DNA from: Patescibacteria group bacterium
Lineage (GTDB): Bacteria; Patescibacteriota; Patescibacteriia; SBBC01; CAIJZX01
Length of the DNA: 64,000 nt
NCBI GenBank assembly: GCA_038065275.1
Contig: JBBTRH010000005.1
Location: 26,466 to 90,465, forward strand
Direction: 5' to 3'
A program made the translations under genes and the position numbers. A model generated the notes under the pieces. It worked only from the letters and a program-made list of their open reading frames with translations, did not search any database and was not told the origin of the DNA. This document shows, piece by piece, positions 7,832 to 62,520 of this stretch (the first letter of the stretch is position 1; each line of letters starts with the position of its first letter).

Positions 7832-7929
7832 AAGTATGACAGTAGTGTATCATATATGAAAAGTGGTGTCAAATGGTACTTATTCAATGACCAAAAGCGG
7901 CCTCCATTCCCGCACGCCCTCTCCTTCCG

Positions 7930-7970
7930 GCGCCCCGCCGCCGCATTTTCCCGCCGCCCGAGGGGTTCGT
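7930..7970. repeat. IR-A left copy: 41-bp perfect inverted repeat (GC-rich junction element)
   Basis: GCGCCCCGCCGCCGCATTTTCCCGCCGCCCGAGGGGTTCGT; exact reverse complement at 11353-11393; followed by a short hairpin and GCGCCGC. Confidence 0.8.
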
Positions 7971-7998
7971 GCCCCGCTTTGCGGGGCGCGCCGCTAAA

Positions 7999-8277
7999 TT
8001 ATGGTAATAAATTACGCCTCATCCAGTCAGTCACATCTTTTGAAATATTAAAAGTCGCCCAATTACTATTTGGAACTTCGATAACCATTACTTTGTCAAC
8101 CGATTTAATTCTATCCCTAATGCCATCCCGAATTTGTGCAATATCTATAGGAGTTTTGATTATCCAAGTATTGGCACACGGTCTTGCCCATTGTGAGGCG
8201 GTTTTAAGGTACGCTATCAAATTCGGATAACTATTTTCCGTATAACTTAGCTGATAAGATATTAAGAATGATTTCAT
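7999..8277 (-). CDS. hypothetical 92-aa protein immediately downstream of the PIN-like gene
   Basis: AT-rich ORF, 3-nt gap to upstream stop; no recognisable motif. Confidence 0.4.
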   Translation of the reverse strand: MKSFLISYQLSYTENSYPNLIAYLKTASQWARPCANTWIIKTPIDIAQIRDGIRDRIKSVDKVMVIEVPNSNWATFNISKDVTDWMRRNLLP

Positions 8278-8280
8278 ATC

Positions 8281-9339: not shown

Positions 9340-9438
9340 GCTTGGACTATTTAACTTCAGATGGGTTATCTCTCATGGGCTTGTTGTGCCAATGTTATTA
9401 CAAATCACAGAATAAACTCACAAAAACATTACATGTGT

Positions 9439-10236
9439 CTAAAAAATAGTAGTGACTTTATTGTACAACATTGACAAACAATCCTGCTTCATACGGAATT
9501 TCGTCCCATGATTGTGTCCGGTGCGAGCATCAAAATCAACGAGTATTTTTCCCTCTTCAAGTGCTTTCAAAAACCCTTCAAAACTGAATTTCTGTAGCAT
9601 CATCACTTTTGTATAATGATAGTATTCTTTCTTTTTATTAACATAAACTTCGGCCTGGACGTAAAAGGTATTTAAAAGCTTTGTACCCGCTTTATGCTCT
9701 AAGTCATCGAATCCCCAGTACGGCTGTGGATTTAATTCGCCAAGCCCAACACGTTTTTTAACCAGTTCAAGCCATCCCTTGTGTCGTGCATCAACTCCAG
9801 ACGCTTTAAATGAAATTAAAATTTTACGCTTATTTCGGTCGATTACGACTTTGAAACCTCGATCACTACGCGATTGTCCATGGATTGTTTGCCTAAAACT
9901 CATTTCTCCTGCTGGATACTTTTTTCCGTCCTCTTGGTGAGCCCATCCATATTGTGGTAATAAAACCTGTGGGACAAAGCGAATCGCTCGTGGTGACGGT
10001 TCAATATGAAAAAGTGTCGTGAGTGAAGTAGAGTTAAGTCTTTGAGTTTTTAACTCCCACTCAGCGGCATTAGGGATTGGTAGGTTATTTTCCTTAATGC
10101 CCAGTAAATCTTCAAGTGTATTCCCAATGCCACCGGCGTTTCCTCGACGTGCATTTGGGACCCACCCCAATTCTGAAATCTCTTTTAGCCGCTCAACTAG
10201 TGCTTCTTTAGTATAAATGACTGGTTTCTTTGCCAT
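9439..10236 (-). CDS. type II restriction endonuclease, MvaI/BcnI-like
   Basis: ORF 9439..10323 trimmed to MAKKPVIYTKEAL; last gene of C-M-R operon; family assignment by recall, not search. Confidence 0.5.
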   Translation of the reverse strand: MAKKPVIYTKEALVERLKEISELGWVPNARRGNAGGIGNTLEDLLGIKENNLPIPNAAEWELKTQRLNSTSLTTLFHIEPSPRAIRFVPQVLLPQYGWAHQEDGKKYPAGEMSFRQTIHGQSRSDRGFKVVIDRNKRKILISFKASGVDARHKGWLELVKKRVGLGELNPQPYWGFDDLEHKAGTKLLNTFYVQAEVYVNKKKEYYHYTKVMMLQKFSFEGFLKALEEGKILVDFDARTGHNHGTKFRMKQDCLSMLYNKVTTIF

Positions 10237-10240
10237 ACAG

Positions 10241-10996
10241 TTATAAAAGTTTTGACTGGGATTGATGTTGCTTAATCCTTTTACGCGCCATTTCACAGTA
10301 ATCGGGAGAAATATCAATGCCAATATACTTGCGTTTATGGTTAATTGCGGAAATGGCCGTCGTCCCTGACCCCATAAATGGATCTAAAACTACTTTAGCG
10401 TCTGTTGCCGAAATTATTCGGTCAATTAACTTTACAGGAAACGCGGCAGGGTGTTTATTGTTCATTTCTTGGGTAAACTCCCACACATCTCCGAGAGCAT
10501 TTGCTTTATCGGCAAGCTTAAATTTTGGTTTAGCAATCAAATAAATTACTTCGTAAGTCGGTAAAAAGTAACCGGCGTTAAAATTCAACCCACCTTTTCT
10601 TTTCCAAATGATTATCTGGCGCACGGGAAAACCAGCCACAATATCTTGTCGATCTTGCAAAAGTCCCGCCTGAACACGCCATTTATGATTGTAAAAAATT
10701 GCGCCATTCTCAGGAATAATTCTTAGCATTTCGGTAAGGGAGTCTCTTTGCCACTTCACATACTTTTCGTGCGGCATACTGTCATCATGATGAGAGTACC
10801 CATTTTGAAGTGCCGCGTTTGCCCATTTTCCACCCCGACCATCTTTCATTCCGTTTCCAGTTGAATTTTTTAGGTTATACGGAGGCGAAGTAACGACTAA
10901 ATCTACCGACCCGTCGGGTATTTGTTTCATTACATCAACGGCATTTCCGCAAATATTTTTGTTGATAAAATCTAATGGATAGTTGAGCTTTTTCAT
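10241..10996 (-). CDS. DNA methyltransferase, beta-class amino-MTase (N4-cytosine or N6-adenine)
   Basis: DLVVTSPPYN (motif IV) N-terminal and FDPFMGSGTT (motif I) C-terminal = beta-class order. Confidence 0.8.
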   Translation of the reverse strand: MKKLNYPLDFINKNICGNAVDVMKQIPDGSVDLVVTSPPYNLKNSTGNGMKDGRGGKWANAALQNGYSHHDDSMPHEKYVKWQRDSLTEMLRIIPENGAIFYNHKWRVQAGLLQDRQDIVAGFPVRQIIIWKRKGGLNFNAGYFLPTYEVIYLIAKPKFKLADKANALGDVWEFTQEMNNKHPAAFPVKLIDRIISATDAKVVLDPFMGSGTTAISAINHKRKYIGIDISPDYCEMARKRIKQHQSQSKLL

Positions 10997-10997
10997 A

Positions 10998-11273
10998 TTA
11001 CTTTAGAAGATCATCACTGGAAATTTCTAACGCTTGAGCAAGTCTTGCCACTGTCGAAAGAGTCACGTTTCTTTTACCATTCTCAATGCCACTAATGTAC
11101 GCTCTGTCAGCGCCAATTTTCGAAGCAATGTCTCCTTGGGACATTCCTTTCTTCGTCCGTATCTTTTTGAGATTATCGCCTAAACGGGAATTGATCGTAT
11201 CGGTATTCACTTGACCAATATACTCCCTTGTTGCACTATAGAGCAATAGTGTACTATAGTACACAAAGCACAT
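10998..11273 (-). CDS. controller (C) protein, XRE-family HTH regulator of the R-M system
   Basis: MSQGDIASKIGADRAYISGIENGKRNVTLSTVARLAQAL HTH; first gene of C-M-R operon; true start probably internal (GTG ~11210). Confidence 0.65.
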   Translation of the reverse strand: MCFVYYSTLLLYSATREYIGQVNTDTINSRLGDNLKKIRTKKGMSQGDIASKIGADRAYISGIENGKRNVTLSTVARLAQALEISSDDLLK

Positions 11274-11352
11274 TGGGGAGCCGAAAGCGCGCGCACGGGA
11301 GGGCGGGGCAAGCGCTTATCTCTACAGGCGGCGCATCCCGTAGCAACGGGAT

Positions 11353-11393
11353 ACGAACCCCTCGGGCGGCGGGAAAATGCGGCGGCGGGGCGC
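11353..11393. repeat. IR-A right copy (reverse complement of 7930-7970)
   Basis: 41/41 identity in inverted orientation. Confidence 0.8.
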
Positions 11394-11486
11394 GGGCGGG
11401 CGGAATTCCCCCTTAGACCCCCTTCCGCCCGCCCGAATCGCCTAAAACTGCCCTTCAAAATAGGTTCGAGCGGCGTTCAGCAATTT

Positions 11487-11580
11487 CCACCAAATGAAAC
11501 TTCCGCGAAAGTCTACGGTCAAATTCCAGGGTTTAGCCAATATCCACCGCACGCTTTTATCCACCAGGCGGCGGTTCGTA
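11487..11580. repeat. IR-B left copy: 94-bp inverted repeat
   Basis: reverse complement of 13901-13994 with a single mismatch; creates artefactual ORF 11442..11672 (-) that mimics the recombinase C-terminus. Confidence 0.85.
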
Positions 11581-11736
11581 GCCCCAGAAGGGGCTAGGTA
11601 TGAAAATGGTCGTGTGATATTACCATTTTCGTACCTTCCAATTTTTTCCGGTTCCGCTCCGAAGCGGAACACGAAGCAAGTTTTTCCGAATCCCGCGCTT
11701 CACTTCCAGTAGTAAGAATGGTTAACTAATAGCACT

Positions 11737-12534
11737 ATGAGCATAAGAATTATCATGCGAGACAATAGCGGTAATAAGTTCTGGATTATTACCCCAAACA
11801 TTAGTATGTATAGCTTTGCGTCCAAATCAAAAAACGTGACTTTCTTGGAAATCTTTTATCGCTTTGCACAGGTTCTAGTTAAACCGCGGAAAGGGCTAAC
11901 AAAGGGTGAAGAGGAGAAGATACTTTTGTCGAGAAAACGGGTCTTGGTTGAGTTAAACAATAAGGTAATGGCGTTAAAATACCTTGCCAACGAATGTAAA
12001 AAGCAGGGCGAGAAATTAATTGCGAGAAAAGATAGCAAAAAGAGAATATACGACTATAAACCATATCAAGTTTTTCTGGCTCTTTGTGAAAGTTATCTGG
12101 ACACTGTACACAGTACCTACGATTGCATCGCTGATCTGGACGGGTTTTTAGGCAAGAAATATGCCCGTGCTATCAATAAAGAACAATGGTTTAAGATCGA
12201 TATGGATTTAAGAAACGTTTTTCATCACAACCAAAGCCCTCTAGTTACTATTGAGAAAGGGAAGGTAGATTTCACCATAGAAAAGCTACCAAGGAGCCCA
12301 AGATTTTTGACTCCGGCAATGAAAAACCCACACGGACGATACGAATTCTCTTTAGACCCAAAGGATTTGGGCGAAGACATTCTTACATTTCTTGAAAAAT
12401 GGGCAAAGCAATATTTGGATTTGATTGATGGCAACGAGAGCATTGACGCAATTGCGGGTTATAAAAAAGATGGTGGTGTAAGAACCAAGAAAGTCACCTT
12501 AAAAGAACTTATGAAACGAGTCGTTGCTACCTAA
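11737..12534 (+). CDS. hypothetical protein (265 aa) upstream of serine recombinase
   Basis: AT-rich ORF 6 nt upstream of recombinase start; no motif recognised; start may be an internal Met. Confidence 0.4.
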   Translation: MSIRIIMRDNSGNKFWIITPNISMYSFASKSKNVTFLEIFYRFAQVLVKPRKGLTKGEEEKILLSRKRVLVELNNKVMALKYLANECKKQGEKLIARKDSKKRIYDYKPYQVFLALCESYLDTVHSTYDCIADLDGFLGKKYARAINKEQWFKIDMDLRNVFHHNQSPLVTIEKGKVDFTIEKLPRSPRFLTPAMKNPHGRYEFSLDPKDLGEDILTFLEKWAKQYLDLIDGNESIDAIAGYKKDGGVRTKKVTLKELMKRVVAT

Positions 12535-12539
12535 AAACT

Positions 12540-14030
12540 ATGCGGTATTTTCTTTACGCTCGAAAATCAACCGAGGATGAAGAACATCAGATCATGTCCA
12601 TTGAGGCACAGCTCTTTGAGTTGTCCGAATATGCCAAGCGAGAAAAGATAACCATTGCCGAAAAGTTTATTGAAAGTAAAAGCGCGAAAAGTCCCGGTCG
12701 GGAAATTTTCGGCCAGATGATTGTCAAAATACAGGAAAGTAAAGAACCAATCGGCATTCTCGCTTGGCATCCTGATCGCTTGGCCCGAAATAGTATTGAT
12801 GGTGGTCAAATTATCTACCTCGTCGACGGCAAGAAAATCGCGGCCTTGCGTTTCCCGACATTCTGGTTTGAACCGACACCGCAAGGGCTATTCATGCTCC
12901 AAGTCGCGTTTGGCCAATCGAAATACTATTCGGACAACTTAAGCGAGAACGTGAAGCGCGGGATTCGTCAAAAACTCAGACGTGGTGAGTCCCCAAATTA
13001 TGCGGCAATCGGGTACGTCAATAATTTTAAAACCCGGACAATTGAACCCGATCCGTTCAAAGGGCGTGTCATCGCTAAAGCATTTGAAGAATATGCGAAA
13101 GGAATGCACACCCTCGAAAGTCTAGGCAAGCGTCTGAGTTTTTGGGGTATAGTCAGTCGGACCGGAAAGCCGCTCCCAAAAGCAACGTTGAGCCGAATGT
13201 TGACCAATCCGGTTCATTGCGGATTGATTCGGCATAATGGCGAAACATATCCGGGCGGTTTTGCCGCTAACGTCTCGATGGAGTTATTCGAAAAAGTCCA
13301 GAAAGTCTATAAGCAAAATCAAAAAGGTCATCATTTTCGTAAGCGTCATCATTTTGCTTTAACTGGACTATTGAAGTGCGGAGAATGTGGCGCGGCAATA
13401 ACCGCCCAAAATACCAAAGGTCATGGCGGTTGGTATGTGTATTATCGCTGTACCAAACGTCTTGGTCCTTGTAAGCAAGGATACATTCAACAAGAGCGGC
13501 TTTCCGATCTGATCCGCGCAAAGGTTCGAGAAGTTGCAATAAGCGAAGACTGGGCGAAGAAAATGTTGGATAAGGTAACGATGTGGGAAAATGAGATCGC
13601 CCAGTCTTCGCAGTCTTCCGCCCAAAATCTCAAAACAAGGATGAAGGAAACAGAATTACAGCTTGACCGCATAGTGAATGCTTTCCTTGATGGCTCTATT
13701 GAAAAGGCTGTTTATTTGGAAAAGAAAGATGCATTGATTAAAACTCAAACTGGCCTTGAACAGAAAAAGGCGGATTTTGGGCGGAAGACCCTTTATTGGA
13801 TCGAACCTTTGCGCCAGTGGATATTAGACGCTCAAAAGGCCGAAAAACTTGCTTCGTCGAACGATTTACCTGAATTGAAATCGTTCGCGGAAAAAATTGG
13901 AACGAACCGCCGCCTGGTGGATAAAAGCGTGCGGTGGATATTGGCTAAACCCTGGAATTTGACCGTAAACTTTCGCGGAAGTTTCATTTGGTGGGCCCCC
14001 CGGGACTCGAACCCGGAACTCTCAGCTTAA
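12540..14030 (+). CDS. large serine recombinase (resolvase/invertase N-domain + recombinase domain + zinc-ribbon)
   Basis: YARKSTEDE...SIEAQ catalytic Ser motif near N-terminus; 496 aa; Cys cluster CGECG...C..C; 3' end runs through IR-B and into the tRNA-Lys gene on the opposite strand. Confidence 0.8.
   Translation: MRYFLYARKSTEDEEHQIMSIEAQLFELSEYAKREKITIAEKFIESKSAKSPGREIFGQMIVKIQESKEPIGILAWHPDRLARNSIDGGQIIYLVDGKKIAALRFPTFWFEPTPQGLFMLQVAFGQSKYYSDNLSENVKRGIRQKLRRGESPNYAAIGYVNNFKTRTIEPDPFKGRVIAKAFEEYAKGMHTLESLGKRLSFWGIVSRTGKPLPKATLSRMLTNPVHCGLIRHNGETYPGGFAANVSMELFEKVQKVYKQNQKGHHFRKRHHFALTGLLKCGECGAAITAQNTKGHGGWYVYYRCTKRLGPCKQGYIQQERLSDLIRAKVREVAISEDWAKKMLDKVTMWENEIAQSSQSSAQNLKTRMKETELQLDRIVNAFLDGSIEKAVYLEKKDALIKTQTGLEQKKADFGRKTLYWIEPLRQWILDAQKAEKLASSNDLPELKSFAEKIGTNRRLVDKSVRWILAKPWNLTVNFRGSFIWWAPRDSNPELSA
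13901..13994. repeat. IR-B right copy (includes CCA end and 3' flank of tRNA-Lys)
   Basis: 93/94 identity to reverse complement of 11487-11580. Confidence 0.85.
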
Positions 14031-14063
14031 AAGGCTGATACTCTACCATTGAGTTAGGGACCC
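13992..14063 (-). tRNA. tRNA-Lys (anticodon UUU), CCA encoded at 13989-13991
   Basis: cloverleaf on minus strand: acceptor GGGUCCC/GGGGCCC, D-arm, anticodon loop CUUUUAA, T-arm CCGGGUUCGAGUCCCGG. Confidence 0.8.
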
Positions 14064-14308
14064 ATGTTGTAAACACTGCTTGCTTTAGAAAGGACGAGAT
14101 GTGTTTCACGTTGAGCCCCGACGTCCCGCTTACGGCGGGAGTCGGGGTCCCGAATCCCGCTTAGCGGGACTTCGGGATTAGGGACCCAAAACTGCGCTGA
14201 TGCTAGCATATTCAGCGTTATGGAGCAAGCGTCGCCGGTCCCCGATTCCCTTGACGCTCAAGCGACTGGGGCTTATGCTTCATCTGCAAACACTAACATC
14301 AGATCAAT

Positions 14309-52352: not shown

Positions 52353-53669
52353 TCAGAATTTCGTCGCGTAATGATCCGCTTCGTGGGCCGGTCGTTCCTG
52401 ACGCCGCACCGGATGCGACGGGCGGTGGCCATGGTGCGGTGGTCGATGTCGCGGCGGTCGGTGGGACGGCGGGGAAACCAGCGGCTGGCGGCGGTGGATT
52501 GGATGAGGATAAAAGGTGGTTGGAGCTGGCAGTCGCCGGGCTGGCGCCAGAGTCGGCAGGGCGGAGATCGGCAACGCGACCCGGATCAGGCGTTCAATGT
52601 CCCGGACATCGCCGCGCTGGTCAAAGGTGGCGAAGGAAACTGCCCGGCCGGTGCGGCCGGCCCGCGCGGTCCGACCGATGCGATGGACATAGTCTTCCGG
52701 GTTGCTCGGCAAATCGTAGTTGACCACGAGTTCAATGCCAGAAACGTCAAGGCCGCGGGCGGCGATGTCGGTCGCGACCAGCACCCGGTATTTCCCCGAC
52801 TTGAATCCCTCCAGCGCCTCGCGCCGCTGGGCTAAACTGCGATTGGAGTGAATGTCGGCGGCGGTACAGCCCATGGTTTTGACCTGCCGTGCCAGCTTTT
52901 TGGCCCCGTACTTCGTTCGCGTGAAGACCAGGGCCGGGCCCGGGATTTGGTTGAGCAGTGTTTCGAGCAGTTGCGGCTTCGCTTCCTTGCCGATAAAAAA
53001 CAGCTCCTGGGTCACTTTGTCAACGGTCGTTCCCGAACGGGTGATTTCCACGCGAATCGGCAGATGCATGTGCCGCTGGGCGATGGCCACGATGGCGTTG
53101 GGCATGGTGGCCGAGAAGAGCATGGTCTGACGTTGACGCGGCACCACCTCCAGAATACGGTTAATCTGCGGCGCGAAGCCCATGTCCAACATCCGGTCGG
53201 CTTCATCAAGGACCAGGATGCGCACGTCTGACAAGTCAACGGTGCGCTGTTCGAGGTGGTCGATCAAGCGGCCCGGCGTCGCGATGATGATATGCGGTTT
53301 CCGCCGGAGCGCCTGGTGCTGGAGATACATCGAGGCGCCGCCGATCAGGACGGCCGTCCGCAGGCCGACGCTCCGACCGATAGCATGGAGCGACTCATCG
53401 ACCTGGATGGCCAATTCGCGGGTCGGCAACACGACTAAGCCGCGCCCCTTGATCTGGGCTAACCGCTGGATCATCGGGATGCCGAAAGCGAGCGTCTTGC
53501 CGGTGCCGGTTTGGGCCACGCCGATCAGGTCCTTGCCTTCGATCGCGACCGGAATCGAGCGGCGCTGGATGGGAGTCGGTTCGGTGAACTTCAGGCGCTC
53601 AACCGCGTCGAGGAGACTGGGAGCGATACCCAGACCGGAAAAATTAATAGATTCGGAGCTGGATGACAT
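52353..53669 (-). CDS. DEAD-box ATP-dependent RNA helicase with P/H/R-rich C-terminal tail
   Basis: Q-motif, AQTGTGKT, DEAD, SAT, HRIGRTARAG; start trimmed to MSSSSE. Confidence 0.85.
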   Translation of the reverse strand: MSSSSESINFSGLGIAPSLLDAVERLKFTEPTPIQRRSIPVAIEGKDLIGVAQTGTGKTLAFGIPMIQRLAQIKGRGLVVLPTRELAIQVDESLHAIGRSVGLRTAVLIGGASMYLQHQALRRKPHIIIATPGRLIDHLEQRTVDLSDVRILVLDEADRMLDMGFAPQINRILEVVPRQRQTMLFSATMPNAIVAIAQRHMHLPIRVEITRSGTTVDKVTQELFFIGKEAKPQLLETLLNQIPGPALVFTRTKYGAKKLARQVKTMGCTAADIHSNRSLAQRREALEGFKSGKYRVLVATDIAARGLDVSGIELVVNYDLPSNPEDYVHRIGRTARAGRTGRAVSFATFDQRGDVRDIERLIRVALPISALPTLAPARRLPAPTTFYPHPIHRRQPLVSPPSHRPPRHRPPHHGHRPSHPVRRQERPAHEADHYATKF

Positions 53670-54099
53670 GGGTGAAGTGTACCACGGCCACGGCGAAAGA
53701 GATACGCCTCGGGCTGGACAGTCCGACGCCTGGTGCGGTAGTGTGACAGTCGGAAACTTGAACCGGAGGGAAGATGACACAACGTCGTTCTGTTCGGAAG
53801 AAGCGTCGAGCCTCAACCAGGCCGGCGCCCCCCGTCCCCGACTTGCCGCCGGCCAGCGGCGTGGCTGATTCCGCCCAGGGACCGGAACGTCTGATGCCTA
53901 AACTGCCGGCGCCACCCAAGCGCCCCAAGCGCAAAACCCGAGGCCGTCCATGACCTCGGGTGTTTTTTTAGTTTGCGTAATTATCGGAGAATTATAGTTA
54001 ATAGCTAAATCTAGTTGCTGATTCTACTATACTGAGGCTCGATTATTGACTAATCTCATAAAAAACTCATGCGCATTAATAAATAATTACATTTCTAAA

Positions 54100-54612
54100 T
54101 TACGCTCCTGTTACGCGATAATGTATGCGCGCTACCGTTTCGCCCAGCGTTTTATTTTCTATTAGTCTCAGTTTCGGCATCGGCACGGCTACATCAAACA
54201 GCCGCTTCCCGCTCCCGAAGAACACCGCTTCGACATCGAGAATGATCTCATCGATCAGTCCGGCTTGCAGGAACACTGTATTGGCCGCCGTTCCTCCACC
54301 GAGCACCGCGGCGGTGAACCCTTGGCCCTTCAGCACCGCCATCGCCTCATCCGGCGTCTTGGCGAACATGGTTTTCCCATCCGGCGAACCGCTCCGCGAT
54401 TCGGACAGAACCACGGTAAACGGGCGACTGATCCGTTCAAACTCCCCGGCCGCCTTCATCATCTCGTACGTCCGCCGACCGACAATGAGATTTCCTTTAG
54501 ACTTCACGAACTCAGCGTAGGCCGTCCACTCCGTTTCCGACCACGGCGTTGAATCATCGTCGCGGGCGATGAAGCCGTCAATGCTGATCGCCATGTAGAG
54601 GGTGAGTTTCAT
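54100..54612 (-). CDS. dihydrofolate-reductase-like (RibD C-terminal domain) family protein
   Basis: 170 aa; GRRTYE, GGGTAAN blocks. Confidence 0.6.
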   Translation of the reverse strand: MKLTLYMAISIDGFIARDDDSTPWSETEWTAYAEFVKSKGNLIVGRRTYEMMKAAGEFERISRPFTVVLSESRSGSPDGKTMFAKTPDEAMAVLKGQGFTAAVLGGGTAANTVFLQAGLIDEIILDVEAVFFGSGKRLFDVAVPMPKLRLIENKTLGETVARIHYRVTGA

Positions 54613-54817
54613 GATCGCGAGGTAAGTTGTCGGTAGCGGCGTATCTTATGGGTTGGGGCGAACCGGCGTATGACAGTATTGTCCCATAGTCAGCAACAAC
54701 TTGACAACCGGCCGCCGCTATGCCACTATTCGCGGCTGTCAGTTCTGCCTGTAACTTTTGTTGATAATTCGCGTCCGTTGACAACTCGATAGCAACACAA
54801 CCGGAGGGGAGAGGTTT

Positions 54818-55558
54818 ATGGGCAAGCCATTTAAGGGCACGACCGAAGAAGGCTTGGCGCATTACCTGGCGAGCCTGCCGCGCGCGACGACTCGAGCCGG
54901 ACATCAGGCTCGGCAACCGATCATCGCCTATTGCCGTTGCACCACGTCGACCGTCCGGCGCTGGACGAAGGGCGAAATCAAGCCGCTGGGGCTGATGCTG
55001 GTCCGGGTACGGTATTTCCTGGCCAGCCAAGGCTACTGTGTCGTCGAGCTCGAAAGACTCGATCCTGCGGTCAGGAGACTCGGCCAATTGATCGCTGAAG
55101 AGGCGCTGACGGCGGATGAAGCACGGGTGGCACTGAAATATGAAGCCAACAACGTCATCCTGGAACTGCTTCACGGGCGGCGGCAACTGAACGACGTCCG
55201 CCAAGCAATACTCGTGTCACTGCTGGCTAGGCATCAATCGCATTCGGCTCCGCCGCCCGATGCAACTTCAGCGGCGACGGAATCATCGCCTCCGACCGTG
55301 CCGCCGACGACGGATGATTGCAAGACCTCCGTCATGGCGATGCTGGCCGGTTTTGTCCAGGGGGCGATACCGCTGGCCGAATTTGCGGCTTCCGATCGCT
55401 TTACTGACGCCGATCGAGAACGGCTCCGCCAGCTCTGCGGCGGCGGCGGAATGTTTCATCTGTCCAATCTGACCGCCGCGCTTTGCAGTGCGGACGCTCG
55501 TCAGGATCAGTTGGCAACCAGCCCGAACAATCGGGCGATACGAAGGAGAAATCAATGA
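54818..55558 (+). CDS. HTH-domain protein, first gene of GHKL cassette
   Basis: IIAYCRCTTSTVRRWTKGEI helix-turn-helix; stop overlaps next gene start (ATGA). Confidence 0.5.
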   Translation: MGKPFKGTTEEGLAHYLASLPRATTRAGHQARQPIIAYCRCTTSTVRRWTKGEIKPLGLMLVRVRYFLASQGYCVVELERLDPAVRRLGQLIAEEALTADEARVALKYEANNVILELLHGRRQLNDVRQAILVSLLARHQSHSAPPPDATSAATESSPPTVPPTTDDCKTSVMAMLAGFVQGAIPLAEFAASDRFTDADRERLRQLCGGGGMFHLSNLTAALCSADARQDQLATSPNNRAIRRRNQ

Positions 55559-57270
55559 AGAAGTCAGCCGATCGCAGCTTCGTCAGCGAAATCGCCGTTC
55601 ATCTCGGCGAAGCACTGCGGAGCGCCGCCATTCACTACGAAACGATCGCCGAGGTCGCGTATGAGGAGGTTCAGAATGCTCTGGACGCCGGCGCGCGAAC
55701 CATTCGGGTCGAGATCGACCTGCGCCGGATGTTCATGCGGGTCGCCGACAACGGTCGAGGGATGAGCCGCGAGCAGATGGAAGCGGCGCTACGCACCATC
55801 TACCGGTCCTTGAAATCCGGCGCGGCGCTGGGCGAAAAGGGCATCGGCATGATGGCGCCGATGGGGAAGAGCGATTATTTCACCATCACCACGACGCCGG
55901 AAGGTGGCGACGAATACCGCGTCTGGAGATTCGTGCCGGAAGAAATTTTCCGGGAGCGAGACAGTGCCAAGGTGCCGGCCGAGGTTTTGCCGGATCTTCG
56001 GTACAATCCGAAGACGTCCGACAACCATCCGACCGACCGCCGCTGGCGAACGGAAGTGATGATCGTCGGGCTGACTTCCGACCGTTCGCTCAGCCGCATG
56101 ACCATCGGCCAGGTGGCCGAGGTGATCAAGGGCCGCTACGGTGCCGCCATGCGTCGCCACCGCACGACTATCACCCTAAGAATCACCGATAAGCGCGGGC
56201 GATCGGAAACGACGACGTTCAACGCTCCGGATTTCGTCGGCCAGCCGCTTGGCAAGTGGCAAGGTTCCGACCTGCGCACCGAGACAGTCGAGTTCCGAAT
56301 GTTCTGGGTCGGGCGATCGCCGAAGGGCAAGCACGGCGAGCATCACGTCTACTTCCGCGAACAGGATCGCGATTACCGCTTGAAGTTCGAGGATTTCCTG
56401 CGGAATCTTAAGTCCTACCTGCGCGAGGACGTTGCCGCCTGTCTCGGCTCAGGCGAGTTCGAGGGTGAGATTTTCTATCCATCTTCGCTCGTTCTGCGCG
56501 ATGACCGGCTTGGCTTCCTGAAGAGCGACGCCCTGGACGGACTGTGCAAGATCATCGAGCGGTGGTACGACGAGATCGGCCAGCAGTATCTCGAGGAAGC
56601 CCGCACCAGTTCGTCTTTGCGCGAAGATCAGCGTCTATGCCGCGCCGCGCTGAGCCACCTGCGGCAGATGTTCGAACGGCCAGAATTCGCCGACTGCCGC
56701 GAGCTGGTGTCGTCGTTCGCCACCGGCTCAATCGGGGGCGGCCATTCACCGGTGGCGAAGGGGCGCGTCATCGGCCCCGACATCATGCCGTCGCTGACTG
56801 ATCATCCGGGACGTGGTCAGAAAACCGCTGACTCGGGCAATGGTCGAGCCGCGGCAGCGCGTTTCGAGCATCCCGGCCTGATTCACCTGGCTGCTTTGGG
56901 TCCGGAGGGGCAGAAGCGCCGGATCGTCAAGCATGGCAGTTTTTCGCTCCGGATATGTCCCGACCAGATGCAGTGGTCGGAGCGACGGGACCGGATGTGG
57001 GAGCTGGTGCCGGAACAGGGCATCATGTTCATCAATAACCGCCATCCGCGGTGGGCAGATTGCAAGGCGGCGCGTAACAGCGAGGCTGTCGTGAACCGGC
57101 TGGTGTCATTCATAGCTGTCAACGCCCTCCGGCTCCACGCCGTCAGGGACAGCGCCCACTATCCGGCCTTGATAGAGTTCTTCGACCGCTCGCTGGAACC
57201 GTACTGCATTTGCCTCCTCAGCGGCAACACGCCGGTCCCGAAAGCAACCAGAACGAAGAAGGCAAGGTAG
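55555..57270 (+). CDS. GHKL-superfamily (histidine-kinase/MutL/MORC-like) ATPase, 571 aa
   Basis: N-box EVQNALDAGA and G1-box VADNGRGMS of the Bergerat fold; RBS AGGAGA 6 nt upstream of ATG 55555. Confidence 0.6.
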   Translation: MKKSADRSFVSEIAVHLGEALRSAAIHYETIAEVAYEEVQNALDAGARTIRVEIDLRRMFMRVADNGRGMSREQMEAALRTIYRSLKSGAALGEKGIGMMAPMGKSDYFTITTTPEGGDEYRVWRFVPEEIFRERDSAKVPAEVLPDLRYNPKTSDNHPTDRRWRTEVMIVGLTSDRSLSRMTIGQVAEVIKGRYGAAMRRHRTTITLRITDKRGRSETTTFNAPDFVGQPLGKWQGSDLRTETVEFRMFWVGRSPKGKHGEHHVYFREQDRDYRLKFEDFLRNLKSYLREDVAACLGSGEFEGEIFYPSSLVLRDDRLGFLKSDALDGLCKIIERWYDEIGQQYLEEARTSSSLREDQRLCRAALSHLRQMFERPEFADCRELVSSFATGSIGGGHSPVAKGRVIGPDIMPSLTDHPGRGQKTADSGNGRAAAARFEHPGLIHLAALGPEGQKRRIVKHGSFSLRICPDQMQWSERRDRMWELVPEQGIMFINNRHPRWADCKAARNSEAVVNRLVSFIAVNALRLHAVRDSAHYPALIEFFDRSLEPYCICLLSGNTPVPKATRTKKAR

Positions 57271-57424
57271 TTGATGTTCCTTACCCCGATAGGCGACTAT
57301 CGGGGTTTTTCTTTGCAACTTGACAAAAATCACGGTTTCCCGCTAAGGTAGGCGCGGCTCACGTCGCACCTCCTAACCGATTTGCAGGCTGGAGCCGAGC
57401 CTCAAATCCCCAGCTGGAGGGTAT

Positions 57425-57871
57425 ATGGCCAAGCGTCACGGCGGACGGCCGCTTATTCCGACCGCCCTCAAGAAGTTCATCCGCGCCAAGCTGTTGGGTG
57501 CGGACAAGAAGGCCCCCCTGGCCAGGCAAATCAGCGCTTGGCACGCCGAGTTGCGGCGGGATCATCCCGACTTGCTCGGCAAGCGGAAGCCTGGGACCTT
57601 CTCGACTCTGGTCTACAAGATCCGTCAGCAGGACGCCAAATCGAGCGGCGCGAAGAAGTCGCGAGCTCGTAGCCGGCCGCGCTCCCGGCGGAACGCCCAG
57701 GCGGCCAAACCGGCCCGCGAACTCAGCCAGGAACTCGCCCGGAAGCTGGGGTTCCTGCAACAGGTTCGGATCGCCGTCTCCGAGGCGGAGGAGATCGTCA
57801 AGGAGCTCCGCCGCGTCAACCTCGAAGTGGTCTATCGGCACGACGAGGTCCTGCTCAAGCCGCTGAAGTAG
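57425..57871 (+). CDS. basic hypothetical protein (148 aa), third gene of cassette
   Basis: Lys/Arg-rich, followed by terminator. Confidence 0.45.
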   Translation: MAKRHGGRPLIPTALKKFIRAKLLGADKKAPLARQISAWHAELRRDHPDLLGKRKPGTFSTLVYKIRQQDAKSSGAKKSRARSRPRSRRNAQAAKPARELSQELARKLGFLQQVRIAVSEAEEIVKELRRVNLEVVYRHDEVLLKPLK

Positions 57872-57892
57872 GCACCGTACCATACGTTCAAC

Positions 57893-57928
57893 ATCCGGAT
57901 CTTCCAGCCGGGTGTTTTTTTATCAACC
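57893..57928 (+). terminator. intrinsic terminator (7-bp stem incl. G-U, 9-nt loop, then T7)
   Basis: CATCCGG-atcttccag-CCGGGTG TTTTTTT. Confidence 0.6.
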
Positions 57929-57952
57929 CAGCCTCACTTTGGTTGGCTGATG

Positions 57953-58450
57953 CTAGTAGACTAGCCGTTTCACCCACGCCGGTACCTTGGCTCGACGGAC
58001 GGTGTCATACTGGGGCGAGTACGGCTTGAGATCAAGGATCGGCGTGCCGTTGAGGATATCAAGTCCCTCCACCCGAACGACATTCCCGCGCCGGGCGAGA
58101 AGCCGAACGGTTGAGACGGCAATCGGGTTAGGACGTTGCGGGCAGCGACAGGCGAACACCCCGACGAACGGCACATCCGCGCGGTTCTGCGGATGATGCC
58201 GAAGATGACATTCTTTCTCCTGATTCATCCAGTAGACGACCATAACGTGCGAGTAACGCTCAAGACCCTGCAGTCCCTTCGCCAACCGCCGATTGATAAC
58301 CAAATCTGTTTTGCGGGAGCGCCAGCCGGTCAGCGTCGGTTTCTTGACGTTATTCACGGCCGTACCGATCGATTTCAGCGTAAAGCGTCCAGCGGCAGTG
58401 CGGCGACCGAAAAAAGAGCAGTATTCTGTGCGCAAGGTTTTTTTCTTCAT
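57953..58450 (-). CDS. tsaA: TsaA/YaeB-family tRNA methyltransferase-like protein
   Basis: GLDILNGTPILDLKPY C-terminal signature. Confidence 0.7.
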   Translation of the reverse strand: MKKKTLRTEYCSFFGRRTAAGRFTLKSIGTAVNNVKKPTLTGWRSRKTDLVINRRLAKGLQGLERYSHVMVVYWMNQEKECHLRHHPQNRADVPFVGVFACRCPQRPNPIAVSTVRLLARRGNVVRVEGLDILNGTPILDLKPYSPQYDTVRRAKVPAWVKRLVY

Positions 58451-58597
58451 TGCTTTCAGGTGATGATGTCCATAGAGTTAACCAAAATGTTCAAACACGG
58501 TTTCCGGCCCGCCGGTCCGGATCTTGGACTTTAGGGATGACGGCCCGCCGAACGAAGAGTTGCCATATTCCTTATGATAGCATAGTATTGAAACCGG

Positions 58598-58915
58598 TTC
58601 GGGGTATGGCGCAGTTTCCCGCCATGCGGCGGGATAAAGTCCGCGCGCATGAATGACCTCGAGCAACCCTCGCGCGGCTCAGGCGTGCGGGGCAAGGGTG
58701 CAATTTCTTTCCAACCTTCAGCTCGTCGGGTCGGGGTATGGCGCTAAAAATGCGCGTCCCGCCCCACTGTCGGGGATTAGCGCAGTTCCCCGCCATGCGG
58801 CGGGATAAAGTCCGCGCGCATGAATGACCTCAAGCCGGTAATTATATACTGGTTCGGGATAAAATGATGTGGGCGGAGTCGGGGTGTGGCGTAGCTGGTA
58901 GCGCGCTTGCATGGG
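58598..58915 (+). repeat. array of tRNA-Pro 5'-end fragments with two 55-bp direct repeats (58610-58664, 58777-58831)
   Basis: GTCGGGGTATGGCGCAG-like tRNA 5' segments at 58598, 58728, 58768, 58877. Confidence 0.6.
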
Positions 58916-59042
58916 GGTCGAGACGGCCGAAGAGCGAATGAACTGCTTCATTCGCGTGCCGTCGAGACGGGCAGCGCCGTGTTCCAAAGGAACAGGCGAT
59001 GCCCCGGAGCATGAGGTCGTTTACATTTTGGCGGCGGCGAGT

Positions 59043-59115
59043 CGGGGTATGGCGCAGTTGGTAGCGCGCTTGCATGGGGTGCAAGAGGTCGTGGGTTCGA
59101 GTCCCGCTACCCCGA
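59043..59115 (+). tRNA. tRNA-Pro (anticodon GGG)
   Basis: 73-nt cloverleaf: acceptor CGGGGUA/UACCCCG, D-arm GCGC-AGUUGGUA-GCGC, anticodon loop AUGGGGU, T-arm GUGGG-UUCGAGU-CCCGC; no encoded CCA; acceptor helix extendable by 9 further flanking bp. Confidence 0.75.
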
Positions 59116-59460
59116 CTCGCCGCCGCATCACATCAATTCGAGTCTCGCTACCCCGACCAAATAAGAAAAGTTAAGTCGAGTACCCGCGAAGGCTCCCGAA
59201 AACTTGACTTTTCTTATTTGGTCGAGTATTCTCAAAAGAGTCCAAACGGGGAGACGCAACGAGTCAGAAACTCCGCCGCCCTCATCAAAACCGCCAACCC
59301 CGCACTATGAATCTTGCGGATTCAAGTACGGGACAAGAGAACCCCCGCACCGCTTCGGGTGCGGGGCAGGCCGGAGAAAAATACCTGCCCCGTCGTTTTA
59401 CGGGGTCGGCTCGAACCACATTTTAAAAACAAATTTATTCATTATGAGCAATCTAAAATT

Positions 59461-60534
59461 ATGAAAAAGGGATTTGCATACGTCCCAGTCCTTGTTGTTA
59501 TATTTTTGGTCATTGCAGCTGGGGTCGTAGGATACTTTGTCGTAACGGCTAACAAAAAATCCACAACCAATGCTAATTCTATAGTTAGGAATGTCGGTAA
59601 TAATGTAAACATAATTTCCAACTCTGGTACCTCCGCCACAAACACGACTCCATCAAGCAATTCGAACAGCAGAACAAAATCTCTACCGATGCCAGTACCT
59701 TTAGCAAAATGGGATACTTCATACAATTCAGGTCTTAAAAATCCCCCCTCAACCCCAGCCGAAGGCCAAGCTTTGTGTGATTCGATAAATGATAATAATA
59801 CCAACACATGGCTTGGACCATTAGTAAATAAGAGTAAGTGTTTTGAAATGATGGTTGGCGGTTTTCACGATCCTAAATTCTGCGAGAAACTTGAATTTTC
59901 AACTGCCCCCGATACTCAACGCAGTCAACCATTTGACATTGGTATGGGCTGCATTGAGGACTACATAAGTCTTTACAAGAATTATGACTGCGCCTACCAT
60001 CAGAAAGTTGAAATTCGTGACCGCTGTTACTATGTTCTAGGCGTGCCAAACATGGTTAGTGATCCGGTTCGAGATTGTTTAAAAATTACTGATACGTTTC
60101 TAAAGAGTAGTTGCGAATCAGTGAACAAAGATTTTGATGCCGCTACTCCGATGCGACAGAATATTCAGGACTCCGTGATGGTTAGCTGTTTGCTTGGGCT
60201 TGAACCAAGTGAAGCTAAATATTTTTCCTCAAGCGGTACCATCTATAATGATTTTGTGAAAGAAGCAAGCAATCAAGGAAATATCGATAACTGTTCACAA
60301 TCAAGTTTCTTTCCTGATTCTGAACGGCAACGCGTGAAAGTACTGGTGGAAACGGACAAAGACCAGGATGGGTTGAATCTCTTTTTAGAAAATGTTTTTG
60401 GCACGGATGATTCGAAAGCTGATTCAGACGGCGACAGTCATCCTGACCTTCAAGAGATTCAAAATGGCTACAATCCTCTTGGTCCTGGTAAGTTAGAGGA
60501 TGCTGAAATTCTAGAAGCCAATACAAATTCCTAA
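59461..60534 (+). CDS. secreted/membrane-anchored cysteine-rich protein with C-terminal Asp-rich calcium-binding-like repeats
   Basis: ORF 59314..60534 trimmed to MKKGFAYVPVLVVIFLVIAAG signal anchor; DSDGDSHPDLQE near C-terminus. Confidence 0.5.
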   Translation: MKKGFAYVPVLVVIFLVIAAGVVGYFVVTANKKSTTNANSIVRNVGNNVNIISNSGTSATNTTPSSNSNSRTKSLPMPVPLAKWDTSYNSGLKNPPSTPAEGQALCDSINDNNTNTWLGPLVNKSKCFEMMVGGFHDPKFCEKLEFSTAPDTQRSQPFDIGMGCIEDYISLYKNYDCAYHQKVEIRDRCYYVLGVPNMVSDPVRDCLKITDTFLKSSCESVNKDFDAATPMRQNIQDSVMVSCLLGLEPSEAKYFSSSGTIYNDFVKEASNQGNIDNCSQSSFFPDSERQRVKVLVETDKDQDGLNLFLENVFGTDDSKADSDGDSHPDLQEIQNGYNPLGPGKLEDAEILEANTNS

Positions 60535-60689
60535 ACTTTCACTTAGAACTATTCCTAGAGAAAGATAGATTTGTAATTTTCAACGATCTAAGCGGAATCG
60601 CCGGCTCGTTGCGGCGCCCCGTTCGAACTTTCTCTAAAATACTCGACTGACGGGTGACCAATGCTCGAGTCCGGTATCCCCGACTCTGG

Positions 60690-60727
60690 TACATGAAGGT
60701 CGTGGGTTTAAGTCCCGCTACCCTGAC
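60690..60727 (+). repeat. degenerate copy of tRNA-Pro 3' end (att-like)
   Basis: GGTCGTGGGTTTAAGTCCCGCTACCCTGACC vs tRNA GGTCGTGGGTTCGAGTCCCGCTACCCCGAC; another copy at 59130-59160. Confidence 0.6.
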
Positions 60728-60952
60728 CAAAAAGATTTGATGATTTTTGTCCCTGGCTCACCGCGTCCTTTACGAATGTAAGCAGGCTTGATTCCCGAGG
60801 CCGAACAAAGGCCTGAGGCCGCTGCTGAACGACTCCGGTACTTCGCGAAGGAGCACTTGAGCGTCCTGAAGCAGTGTATTAGCCGCTGGGTCCGCTAGAT
60901 CCTGACCCCACGGGGTCAAGAGATATCGACCTCCCAAGGACGATGTATAGAA

Positions 60953-61054
60953 CCCCGTTAGAAGTGGAACGGATACTGCCCTCCGGATTCGTTTGAGGTC
61001 ATCCTGAAACTCTTTCTCACAACACATGCATAGTTCTCGCCACTTCTAACGGGG
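60953..61054. mobile_element. MITE-like element copy F (TIR CCCCGTTAGAAGTGG; TSD GAA)
   Basis: 15-bp perfect TIR. Confidence 0.65.
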
Positions 61055-61167
61055 GAACAACGATGAGGCCGGGGACACCGCCAGCGTACTCCGACTATAC
61101 CTCTTTGGCAAGAAAAAATGGCCGGCTCGTTTGAGCTGGCCACGCTGTTCCTTTCGGTGGAGCAATA

Positions 61168-61410
61168 CTACCCCTCCGTCACCTGGCGCCGCGCGCTTGA
61201 GGTCAGGCCGCCGAGCCGGCCGATCCGTGCCATGTGTTCGCGGTCCCGGCTAACGACCTGGCCGCCTTTGCGACCCGCCCGGCGCGCCTCTTCCGAGGTG
61301 TATTGGCGAGTCTTGCCGCTCTGGTGGGCGGCCCGGCCGCCGCGGCGGGCAACATCACGCAACTTCTCGGGGTCCCAGCTGGCGAATCCTCGTCGCGACT
61401 CCGATGTCAC
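61168..61410 (-). CDS. KGG-repeat general stress protein (YciG-like)
   Basis: RGFASWDPEKLRDVARRGG...RKGGQ...RLGG repeats. Confidence 0.65.
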   Translation of the reverse strand: MTSESRRGFASWDPEKLRDVARRGGRAAHQSGKTRQYTSEEARRAGRKGGQVVSRDREHMARIGRLGGLTSSARRQVTEG

Positions 61411-61650
61411 CTGGTCCTCCTTCGTGAAGTGAGAACAAAATGGTTGGTGCGGCCGGCCTACTTAAGCACAGCACCCCGACCATGTCAACCCAGCATCACT
61501 TCGGTTCAAACCAGTGTTAATATACTTCCAGCCATTTAATTATAGGTAAATGGTAATTTCCCATATACCCTCGAGCCAACCAAAGTGGTGCTGGGTCAAG
61601 CGCGCGGCGGGAAAAAAACCGCTTCGCGAGAAGCGGACTGAGGGCGGGAG

Positions 61651-62079
61651 CTAGAGACCATCGATTTTCGCATCTGGAAGCGGCGGCGTTTCGGCATGCG
61701 GCACGGATTGCCCAGGGGGTCGCTTGAACCGGCCCCCGTGGTGTCGATCAATCTCCTCGGTGCGTCGGATCGTCTCGACGGGGAGGTGGGCGGACTGCAG
61801 CTGAACAAGCATCTCGGCCGCCAGCTGTTTGCGCTGTAAAGCGTCGTCCGGAGCGACAATGAGACGGCGGAATCCGTTCGTCACGGGCAGGGTGACGATC
61901 ACCGTTGCCTCACGCTGCCGGCATTCGTAGCTGACGGTCGTGACGGATTGGTCAGCCTCGACCGCCGGACCGATAGTGATGCTGGCGATGCCGTGACAGC
62001 GCTCGACGATGATCTTCACTGCGGCATCGGCCAGGCGCGATGAACCGAGCGGCGCCGAGACATGGACGGCGGAATTCAT
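61651..62079 (-). CDS. hypothetical protein (142 aa)
   Basis: start trimmed to MNSAVHVS with GAGGAGG RBS 6 nt upstream. Confidence 0.45.
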   Translation of the reverse strand: MNSAVHVSAPLGSSRLADAAVKIIVERCHGIASITIGPAVEADQSVTTVSYECRQREATVIVTLPVTNGFRRLIVAPDDALQRKQLAAEMLVQLQSAHLPVETIRRTEEIDRHHGGRFKRPPGQSVPHAETPPLPDAKIDGL

Positions 62080-62160
62080 TGGTGTCCTCCTCGGGTAAGG
62101 AACGGTTGGCGGGTACAGACCCAATGACGCGAGGCTACCAGAGGCCACGGCGGTAGTCAA

Positions 62161-62261
62161 CCCCGTTAAAAGTGAAGGTGGGCGGGATGCCATTTACGCT
62201 CAGTCAACATCATATCCCCGATTGAACTAATGATTACTTCGCGGGATCACTTCTAACGGGG
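62161..62261. mobile_element. MITE-like element copy G (TIR CCCCGTTAAAAGTGA / TCACTTCTAACGGGG)
   Basis: one mismatch in the left TIR. Confidence 0.6.
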
Positions 62262-62310
62262 CTAAGAGGAAAAAAGAAAATCCCGGGCGTGAGCCAAGGA
62301 CTTTCGCTGT

Positions 62311-62520
62311 TTACTTCCCCCCGAGGGGGATCAAGCGCGCAGCGCCCGCAACGACAATACCCAGGCCGAGAACCAAGGGTACGATCGCGAGGGGGCCGAA
62401 CTTACGGCCCGAGAGCGCTGCTAAGACGAGCATGGCACCGGCGACCATCAGACCGTACTGATGCCCGAAGGCGATCAGCGGATCGAGGTACGGCGCCGTC
62501 ACAATGTTGATGTGCAGCAT
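62311..62520 (-). CDS. small membrane protein (69 aa, 2 TM)
   Basis: hydrophobic, G/A-rich. Confidence 0.4.
   Translation of the reverse strand: MLHINIVTAPYLDPLIAFGHQYGLMVAGAMLVLAALSGRKFGPLAIVPLVLGLGIVVAGAARLIPLGGK

Follow-up and report, generated by a model that had tools for sequence, protein, structure and literature searches.

tRNA genes are classic landing sites for mobile DNA. This article examines one of them, a tRNA-Pro(GGG) gene, and its surroundings in a stretch of 64,000 nucleotides (nt) of contig JBBTRH010000005.1 (the window, to which all unlabelled positions refer). The contig belongs to a metagenome-assembled genome (MAG) of the Patescibacteria (candidate phyla radiation, CPR) from Hainich groundwater. 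One intact tRNA-Pro gene lies here among partial copies of its 5' part upstream and of its 3' end downstream, next to an AT-rich segment with a single gene. With slightly better than even confidence, we read the locus as a scarred tRNA-Pro(GGG): DNA bearing tRNA-Pro segments would have recombined into the resident gene repeatedly, and would then have been mostly deleted.

Proteins encoded in the window also occur in the ENA assembly ERZ1292631 (Hain_H32_02um), in a Logan assembly of ERR3858126, and on a 183-kilobase (kb) NCBI MAG contig. The background GC content is 55-63%; two stretches are AT-rich, one at 6-14 kb beside tRNA-Lys and one at 59.2-60.7 kb beside tRNA-Pro. The features of the latter locus are collected in Table 1.

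Table 1. Features of the tRNA-Pro(GGG) locus in their order along the window; nt numbers within descriptions refer to the tRNA.
Feature	Position	Strand	Basis
Promoter-like site TTGCCA-17-TAGTAT of the ancestral tRNA-Pro	58560-58588	+	Consensus scan
psi1: T(-1) plus nt 1-17 of the ancestral tRNA-Pro, native-type leader ACCGGT	58599-58616	+	Exact 18-nt match to intact gene
48-nt non-tRNA sequence fused to psi1; first part is the palindrome TCCCGCCATGCGGCGGGA (58617-58634)	58617-58664	+	Repeat comparison
psi2: nt 1-13, helix-type leader CGTCGGGT, altered D arm, then TCCCGCC	58732-58763	+	Repeat comparison, alignment
psi3 (nt 1-17, diverged) plus second copy of the 48-nt sequence	58770-58835	+	66-nt repeat, 92% identical to 58599-58664
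psi3b: weak copy of native upstream context plus ~8 first tRNA nt	58836-58861	+	ACTGGTTCGGGATA against ACCGGTTCGGGGTA; alignment
psi4: helix-type leader GGCGGAGT plus nt 1-38 (into anticodon loop)	58872-58917	+	88% repeat; blastn 93% over 41 nt
Match to nt 39-50, GCATGAGGTCGT	59009-59020	+	Repeat comparison; ~90 structured nt from psi4
Leader arm of helix, GCGGCGGCGAGT	59031-59042	+	Perfect 19-nt inverted repeat with 59108-59126; fold
Sole intact tRNA-Pro(GGG), CCA not encoded	59043-59115	+	ARAGORN; Rfam RF00005, 64.7 bits
Trailer arm of helix, ACTCGCCGCCGC, first base is discriminator A73	59115-59126	+	Inverted repeat; fold
3'A: nt 54-73 plus CCA plus AATAAGA, native/CCA type, left direct repeat of AT-rich segment	59137-59166	+	1 mismatch in 19; alignment; RNA fold
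AT-rich hairpin, 71 nt, stem of 23 base pairs, starting in tRNA 3'-end copy	59154-59224	+	96% complementary; DNA fold z -5.9
Left arm of 56-nt inverted repeat around cargo gene	59221-59276	+	75% complementary
Cargo gene, 357 amino acids, membrane-anchored or secreted, Cys-rich, C-terminal TSP3-like Asp-rich repeat	59461-60534	+	Open reading frame
Right arm of 56-nt inverted repeat	60592-60647	+	Repeat comparison; first 30 nt identical in L015
3'B: weak copy of nt 54-73 then TC, helix type	60664-60686	+	61% over 31 nt; alignment
3'C: ancestral nt ~34-73 plus encoded CCA, right direct repeat of AT-rich segment	60687-60729	+	blastn 91% to L017 tRNA 3' end; alignment
Native downstream DNA	60730-60953	+	CTCACCGCGTCCT block; 71% identity over 215 nt to relative

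Copies of tRNA-Pro and the ancestral gene

ARAGORN makes a single tRNA-Pro(GGG) call, at 59043-59116, in agreement with Rfam and with the one intact gene of the original prediction. An Rfam scan of 57500-61500 (E<=1) contains no second tRNA, and the fragments are therefore not additional tRNAs; nor does ARAGORN, run as had been proposed, call them as functional genes, and neither tool found another RNA family in the region. Nucleotide 72 of the intact gene is followed by ACTC, so that CCA is not encoded, whereas the tRNA-Lys gene of the window does encode CCA; both points had been predicted.

The 5' partial copies begin at 58600, 58732, 58771 and 58880, with a weak fifth at 58854. All four copies claimed at the outset are present, and the starts then assigned are the true tRNA starts minus 1-3 leader bases. 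The 14-mer TCGGGGTATGGCGC has exactly 3 exact occurrences, all within this region. For psi4, the local alignment score is 77 compared with a shuffle maximum of 52, with fainter similarity extending to about 58927. The approximately 90 nt between psi4 and the nt 39-50 piece (58918-59008) contain three hairpins and two copies of the direct repeat GTCGAGACGG. The resemblance that defines psi3b is weak and may be a chance similarity.

Both psi1 and psi3 have the same junction to the same 48-nt sequence, which is derived neither from the tRNA nor from its flanks. Each unit, 58599-58664 and 58770-58835, thus spans 66 nt; the pair is 92% identical and includes 52 nt with one mismatch and an identical 43-nt core, for which 0 such repeats are expected by chance. 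The repeat described earlier is real, but it had been given as 55 identical base pairs (bp), whereas identity is complete only in the 43-nt core; its second copy had been placed about 4 nt out of register. The DNA 3' of the two units is dissimilar and does not align. That the DNA after the first unit might be the decayed remainder of a tRNA is unsupported, the alignment score being equal to the shuffle mean. On the other side of the intact gene, the two predicted copies of the tRNA 3' end were found at 59137-59159 and 60696-60727, together with a weaker third at 60664-60686.

Two metagenome contigs, L016 and L017, found by exact search with the first 45 nt of tRNA-Pro, show the locus in uninterrupted form. 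They share with the window a DEAD-box helicase (75% amino acid (aa) identity), a response regulator (74% aa) and further neighbouring genes in matching order, and their tRNA-Pro(GGG) is single and intact, with encoded CCA and without leader-trailer pairing. The promoter-like region and gene start of L017 align to 58560-58616, with TTGCCA-17-TAGTAT kept; the block 58575-58616 matches the DNA just 5' of the single L017 gene (blastn 79% over 57 nt), and the upstream context of psi1 is orthologous to L017. The 3' part of the L017 tRNA, together with its downstream DNA, aligns to 60687-60790; T-loop A57 and GACCAA are common to this tRNA and 3'C. Because the start and 3' part of the L017 gene align there, psi1 and 3'C, the outermost fragments, are the two ends of the ancestral gene, with about 2.07 kb now between them. 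The unoccupied site that had been suggested as a check is thus present in relatives, with the same flanks and no insert, and the state in the window is therefore derived. By the same comparison, the intact gene is not the original gene of the locus but a replacement, which had not been anticipated.

The conserved DNA further downstream (60744-60953) is 71% identical to that 3' of tRNA-Pro in L016. For its 85-aa open reading frame (ORF; minus strand), a comparison with 5.8 billion proteins gave no homologue, so that the conserved element may be non-coding; the ORF was of no use as a synteny anchor. The 5' side of tRNA-Pro is also variable, since a 246-aa protein, a 571-aa HATPase_c_3 protein, a 148-aa protein and TrmO, all encoded between the helicase and the tRNA-Pro promoter (54818-58450), are missing from L016. 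With TrmO as a synteny anchor, GTDB genomes yielded just 54-57% identical relatives with no tRNA nearby. TrmO relatives at 82-88% (L007-L012, L020) lie in other gene contexts and hence do not show the empty site, and two further TrmO contigs (L021-L023) contain no tRNA.

When all copies are aligned together with their flanks, two types emerge that alternate along the locus and occur on both sides. The native type has the leader ACYGGT, as in L017, and the 3' end GACCAA (psi1, psi3, psi3b, 3'A and 3'C); the helix type has the leader GGCGRGT and the 3' end GACTC (psi2, psi4, the intact gene and 3'B). The unit made up of the intact gene, its arms and roughly 10 nt of flank at either end sits between the nt 39-50 piece and 3'A (nt 54-76). 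When 58870-59235 is folded, 3'A pairs around it with the 5' strand of psi4. The working tRNA-Pro is accordingly nested within an older copy, whose halves are psi4 and 3'A.

A mosaic of this kind could be false if low-coverage short reads of several strains or related species had been collapsed or chained at the conserved tRNA. Coverage of the source assemblies is just 3-4x, and the independent contigs L002 and L003/L004 all end within tRNA-Pro (L003/L004 start at 59053/59069). Three mismatches between L002 and the window, at 58890, 58895 and 58906, all fall in psi4; they may reflect strain variation or consensus error at this coverage. Set against this, identity of these contigs to the window is at least 99.9%. 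The ENA contig L002 matches 52706-59079 with 4 mismatches and contains the entire 5' array, while L004 matches 59053-62406 with 3 mismatches, and the entire AT-rich segment plus the native downstream DNA lies inside L003/L004. The join across tRNA-Pro is backed by synteny of both flanks with a single L017 locus. The exact repeats measure 18 nt, which is shorter than usual assembly k-mer sizes, and 43 nt, the latter being wholly within L002. An artefact is an unlikely source of the layout, and we give it very little credence.

The AT-rich segment and its cargo gene

The segment 59161-60690 has a GC content of 43.1%, compared with 58-60% in its flanks, and its ~1.5 kb are missing from the syntenic relative. 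It is bracketed by the imperfect direct repeats 3'A and 3'C (about 30 nt, same orientation, plus strand), which share the T-loop-to-end part of the tRNA, CCA, and AAA(T)AAGA (about 8 nt downstream), where the intact gene instead ends in GACTC. Bracketing of this kind is characteristic of Campbell-type insertion into the 3' end of a tRNA gene (PMC4383910). By composition and by comparison with the relative, the segment is foreign DNA, and there are strong grounds for regarding it as the clearest integration event of the locus.

In the Islander collection of tRNA islands, the ends of islands are recognised by displaced pieces of tRNA genes; 159 of 3919 islands show 5' fragments, and tandem arrays of three or more are found in 4 (PMC4383910). 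The locus resembles such islands in that deviant foreign DNA lies between the tRNA and a displaced 3'-end direct repeat, the site is empty in relatives, and 5' fragments stand upstream and 3' fragments downstream in the correct orientation (PMC4383910). Several fragments at one tRNA suggest repeated use, as in the Islander tandem arrays. It differs in lacking an integrase, in its tiny segments (about 0.1 to 1.5 kb), in combining 5' and 3' fragments with varying break points at the same gene, and in having the ancestral ends as its outermost pieces, with a full replacement gene nested in an older copy. Of the features by which islands are recognised, it thus has the direct-repeat fragment, the empty site and the deviant composition, and is without the integrase.

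The sole ORF of the segment is the cargo gene. Its product has an N-terminal hydrophobic segment, 10 Cys and 28 Asp, in line with the original prediction of one secreted-type, Cys-rich protein with Asp-rich repeats and no accompanying integrase. The protein has no Pfam match and a weak NCBIfam match of the thrombospondin-3 type (TSP3); more distant homologues carry PF18884. At the left end, the hairpin that starts in the tRNA 3'-end copy could be terminator-like or att-like. A microRNA-like RNA was considered for this hairpin and rejected, the only Rfam match being a chance plant microRNA (30 bits against a threshold of 83). Within the right arm of the inverted repeat, a GC-rich 30-nt element (60592-60621, GCGGAATCGCCGGCTCGTTGCGGCGCCCCG) is identical in L015, though the coding DNA is about 76% identical; a partial reverse complement of it lies 5' of the cargo gene at 59244-59273. 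There is no clear palindrome 3' of the right end of the cargo segment.

Close homologues of the cargo gene number three (79-84% aa, 75-77% nt), all in Patescibacteria contigs of 42% GC. One of these, L015, is cut near both gene ends, and the comparison of flanks rests on L013 and L014. There, the homologues are flanked by 26-27-nt inverted repeats with the ends GTTRRRY.../...RYYYAAC, to which the inverted-repeat ends around the window gene are related. Both low-GC contigs (L013 1-6100, L014 1-3617) contain integron-like arrays. The L013 homologue belongs to a row of at least five one-gene units downstream of a divergent tyrosine recombinase (IntI/Xer-like, 274 aa) that adjoins tRNA-Met; the best NCBIfam match of this protein is integron integrase, at 222 bits and thus under the cut-off of 265, and its length falls about 40 aa short of the model. 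Between the units lie attC-like palindromes ending GAAACGTTR, two 67-nt copies of which are 90% identical. A search of the literature gave no report of integrons in Patescibacteria genomes.

Like integron cassettes and CALIN, the latter being attC clusters without an integrase (PMC9024848), the segment has a single ORF bounded by inverted-repeat ends, and its L013/L014 homologues stand in arrays of one-gene units with conserved palindromes ending ...AAC/GTTR..., beside a divergent IntI/Xer-like tyrosine recombinase. Unlike them, the window has no integrase, no array and no AACGTTR core; in addition, the L013 recombinase falls under the integron-integrase cut-off. As the window has neither a tyrosine recombinase nor the AACGTTR core, the gene may best be described as a stranded cassette-type gene within a decayed tRNA-integrated segment.

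The second AT-rich island of the window (5920-14063, 35-47% GC) borders directly on tRNA-Lys(TTT). Its genes encode AbiEii/AbiEi, a type II restriction enzyme with a methylase, and a large serine recombinase (12540-14030), which is the sole recombinase of the window. The last 42 nt of the recombinase gene overlap the tRNA-Lys 3' end on the opposite strand; serine recombinases have been reported as not known to target tRNA genes (PMC4383910). A displaced tRNA-Lys 3' fragment was sought at the far end of this island, and none was found. About 125 nt 5' of tRNA-Lys, a 10-12-nt copy of its 5' end, GGGTCCCTAA, lies in 14120-14190 (minus strand) and is directly followed by two GC-rich palindromes, TCCCGAAGTCCCGCTAAGCGGGATTCGGGA and CCCCGACTCCCGCCGTAAGCGGGACGTCGGGG, as at the 5' fragments of tRNA-Pro.

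Leader-trailer helices and nested tRNA genes

The leader and trailer of the intact tRNA-Pro are held in perfect 19-nt inverted arms (59031-59049 / 59108-59126), which continue the 7-bp acceptor stem by 12 bp, including T(-1):A73. The 116-nt precursor has a predicted folding energy of -66.6 kcal/mol (z = -6.3). Pairing of these flanks had been predicted over 9 bp beyond the acceptor stem; the helix is real and the length is to be corrected to 12. It had also been called an unusual precursor structure, yet the same kind of structure is present at four other tRNAs of related genomes.

These genomes are related through the TrmO beside the locus, which is 82-85% identical to proteins on L007, L011 and L012, in otherwise different gene contexts. 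All distinct tRNAs on L007 and L011 (4/4) have leader-trailer pairing, compared with none (0/6) in other genomes, including the L017 orthologue and the tRNA-Lys of the window. The helix of the L007 tRNA-Arg has 13 bp and reaches about 35 bp with internal loops; that of Pro(TGG), also on L007, has 14 bp, among them three G-U pairs, which are valid only on the tRNA strand; those of the two tRNA-Gly genes (L007/L011) comprise 11 bp, and 16 positions with two mismatches. The helix-enclosed genes lie at 9430-9700 and 12900-13185 on L007 and at 4930-5150 on L011. By our own calculation, the random chance of 11 consecutive pairs, G-U included, is about 2e-5 at this base composition. Because the arms are unrelated in sequence from tRNA to tRNA and the G-U pairs fit the tRNA strand only, the pairing appears to be selected at the RNA level. 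Transposon terminal repeats were considered as an identity for the arms and ruled out on account of the same variation and G-U pairs.

Two known systems offer comparisons. In bacterial tRNA precursors, pairing of the leader with the 3' RCCA slows RNase P and covers a few bases in Escherichia coli (PMC9433436). The helices described here likewise pair the leader with the discriminator and the next bases, prolonging the acceptor stem, and at the L007 tRNA-Arg and tRNA-Gly they take in the encoded CCA; they differ in length, with 11-16 bp and at times about 35 bp. Helices of this length imply an additional, earlier step of cleavage or unwinding. In rRNA precursors, long leader-trailer helices are known (PMC11404451) and serve as RNase III processing stems. 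As in that case, the flanks of a structural RNA pair and prolong its terminal stem, and pairing is kept as the sequence shifts between genes and genomes; in contrast to rRNA, each helix encloses a single tRNA. In the literature searched, no report of leader-trailer helices around bacterial tRNAs was found.

Nesting is also seen on L007. The 5' part (nt 1-35) of an old tRNA-Gly, with the same 12-nt leader, lies 109 nt 5' of the intact gene, and a 10-nt match from about nt 35-36, CAAGCTGATG, lies 53 nt downstream; the 192-nt insert in this tRNA-Gly starts with TCCCGC and ends with GCGGGA. At the L007 tRNA-Arg, an upstream copy of nt 1-13 is broken by a 32-nt hairpin, and a possible anticodon-arm remnant downstream was seen by eye and not recovered by local alignment. 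Such cases raise the alternative that tRNA genes move as modules, a helix-enclosed gene, often edged by TCCCGC/GCGGGA, inserting into a resident copy of the same tRNA and taking over its function. The order of old 5' part, helix-flanked intact tRNA and old 3' part recurs at the window Pro, L007 Gly and L007 Arg, and the bounds of the Gly insert are of the expected kind. Among the 5' fragments with a readable junction, a comparison that covers the window and L007, a (T)CCCGC palindrome directly follows psi1, psi2, psi3, the tRNA-Lys 5' copy, L007 psi-Arg and L007 psi-Gly. The motif is, however, not enriched window-wide (11 sites vs 6.2 expected), and the inner module of the window lacks TCCCGC ends. 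The examples come from three loci in two genomes only, no enzyme has been identified, and arms that vary between tRNAs and contain G-U pairs indicate RNA-level selection rather than a DNA recognition site. As an account of the present locus, module insertion strikes us as improbable.

Origin of the locus and its meaning

Repeated recombination into the resident gene, the reading preferred here, would have started from one tRNA-Pro gene that had its own promoter and a terminator and encoded CCA. DNA with tRNA-Pro segments would have entered this gene several times, most of the incoming DNA being deleted later. The AT-rich segment would have entered as a circle, through a single crossover in the T-loop-to-3'-end part of the tRNA that may have been site-specific or guided by tRNA homology, the recombinase being lost afterwards. 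The two identical junctions of nt 1-17 with the 48-nt sequence could represent two D-loop insertions of one element type; the helix-type gene would be a replacement version of tRNA-Pro. The leader-trailer helix would then be a processing stem that frees the tRNA from a lengthy precursor full of junk, whose transcription may start at the old promoter 445 nt upstream. At present, the locus would supply tRNA-Pro and one surface protein, with the fragments as scars.

The original prediction, several rounds of site-specific integration followed by decay, is borne out in part. Integration and decay are supported by the AT-rich segment, with its foreign GC content, direct repeats and empty site in a relative, and by the junctions shared between psi1 and psi3; a further recombinase-bearing AT-rich island at a tRNA of the same window (tRNA-Lys) also speaks for this reading. 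Site-specificity throughout is not borne out: break points vary (17/18, about 38, and 50/54), so that a single site-specific enzyme cannot account for all of them, and the 5' array may be a local duplication.

Besides these break points and the low assembly coverage, several observations weigh against repeated recombination. The locus is without a recombinase gene, and a tblastn search with a tyrosine recombinase found none in the 64-kb window. Identity between the direct repeats 3'A and 3'C reaches only about 84%, and the AACGTTR core of the L013/L014 array junctions was not found near the window cargo gene. The 5' copies are spaced by about 109-171 bp, include the leader, and have no recognisable element genes. 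A perfect leader-trailer match would be hard to obtain if the two arms had come in separate events. Finally, no donor element is known, since the 48-nt sequence (the core of the former 55-nt repeat) and the helix-type flanks have no match in the metagenome or viral contigs searched; nor have the CCA-type and helix-type 3' ends, the tRNA itself and the 30-nt cassette element in the viral contigs.

Several of these points suit a different history, in which unequal crossing-over, or template switching at the long leader-tRNA-trailer palindrome, repeatedly copied the gene in place together with its leader. The copies would then have decayed by deletions and small insertions, the AT-rich gene alone being foreign. 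Co-copied leaders, short spacing, the absence of element genes and of any donor sequence, and the L007 analogues make this a serious contender for the upstream array, and the nesting may perhaps share this origin. The native promoter context recurs at psi3b, and the L007 tRNA-Gly fragment has the 12-nt leader of its intact gene at a distance of only 109 nt. On the other hand, the 66-nt units are 92% identical and yet followed by unalignable DNA, which is unlike a recent tandem duplication, and complementary break points (35/36 at L007 Gly, 50/54 in the window) suit insertion better than independent deletions. Duplication in place also leaves the two alleles with different 3' ends unexplained, and the 48-nt sequence comes from neither the tRNA nor its flanks. 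We consider local duplication rather unlikely as the history of the whole locus, while taking it seriously for its 5' side.

Mobile DNA is known to insert at tRNA genes, and the locus is a dense variant of this habit. Under repeated recombination into the resident gene, it would be an extreme case from a lineage that is streamlined and uncultivated, with the original gene destroyed and replaced and scars of both its ends kept. Should the ideas on helix, cassette and nesting all fail, an ordinary, heavily decayed integration site would be left. If the cassette relationship is confirmed, cassette-type genes of integron-like arrays cross between Patescibacteria of very different GC content and can reach tRNA genes.

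If the helices are confirmed, a whole clade wraps its tRNAs in rRNA-like stems; as these stems should block RNase P until they are cut, the order of tRNA maturation steps would be different. Nested tRNA-in-tRNA layouts, if confirmed, recur, and would hint at a specific mechanism of tRNA gene replacement. It is conceivable, if doubtful, that the helix-enclosed tRNA genes of this clade are renewed by a helix-flanked module with TCCCGC/GCGGGA palindromes, which inserts into the resident copy and leaves the old halves behind. If true, such renewal would be a previously undescribed route of tRNA gene turnover, combined with an undescribed mode of bacterial pre-tRNA processing.

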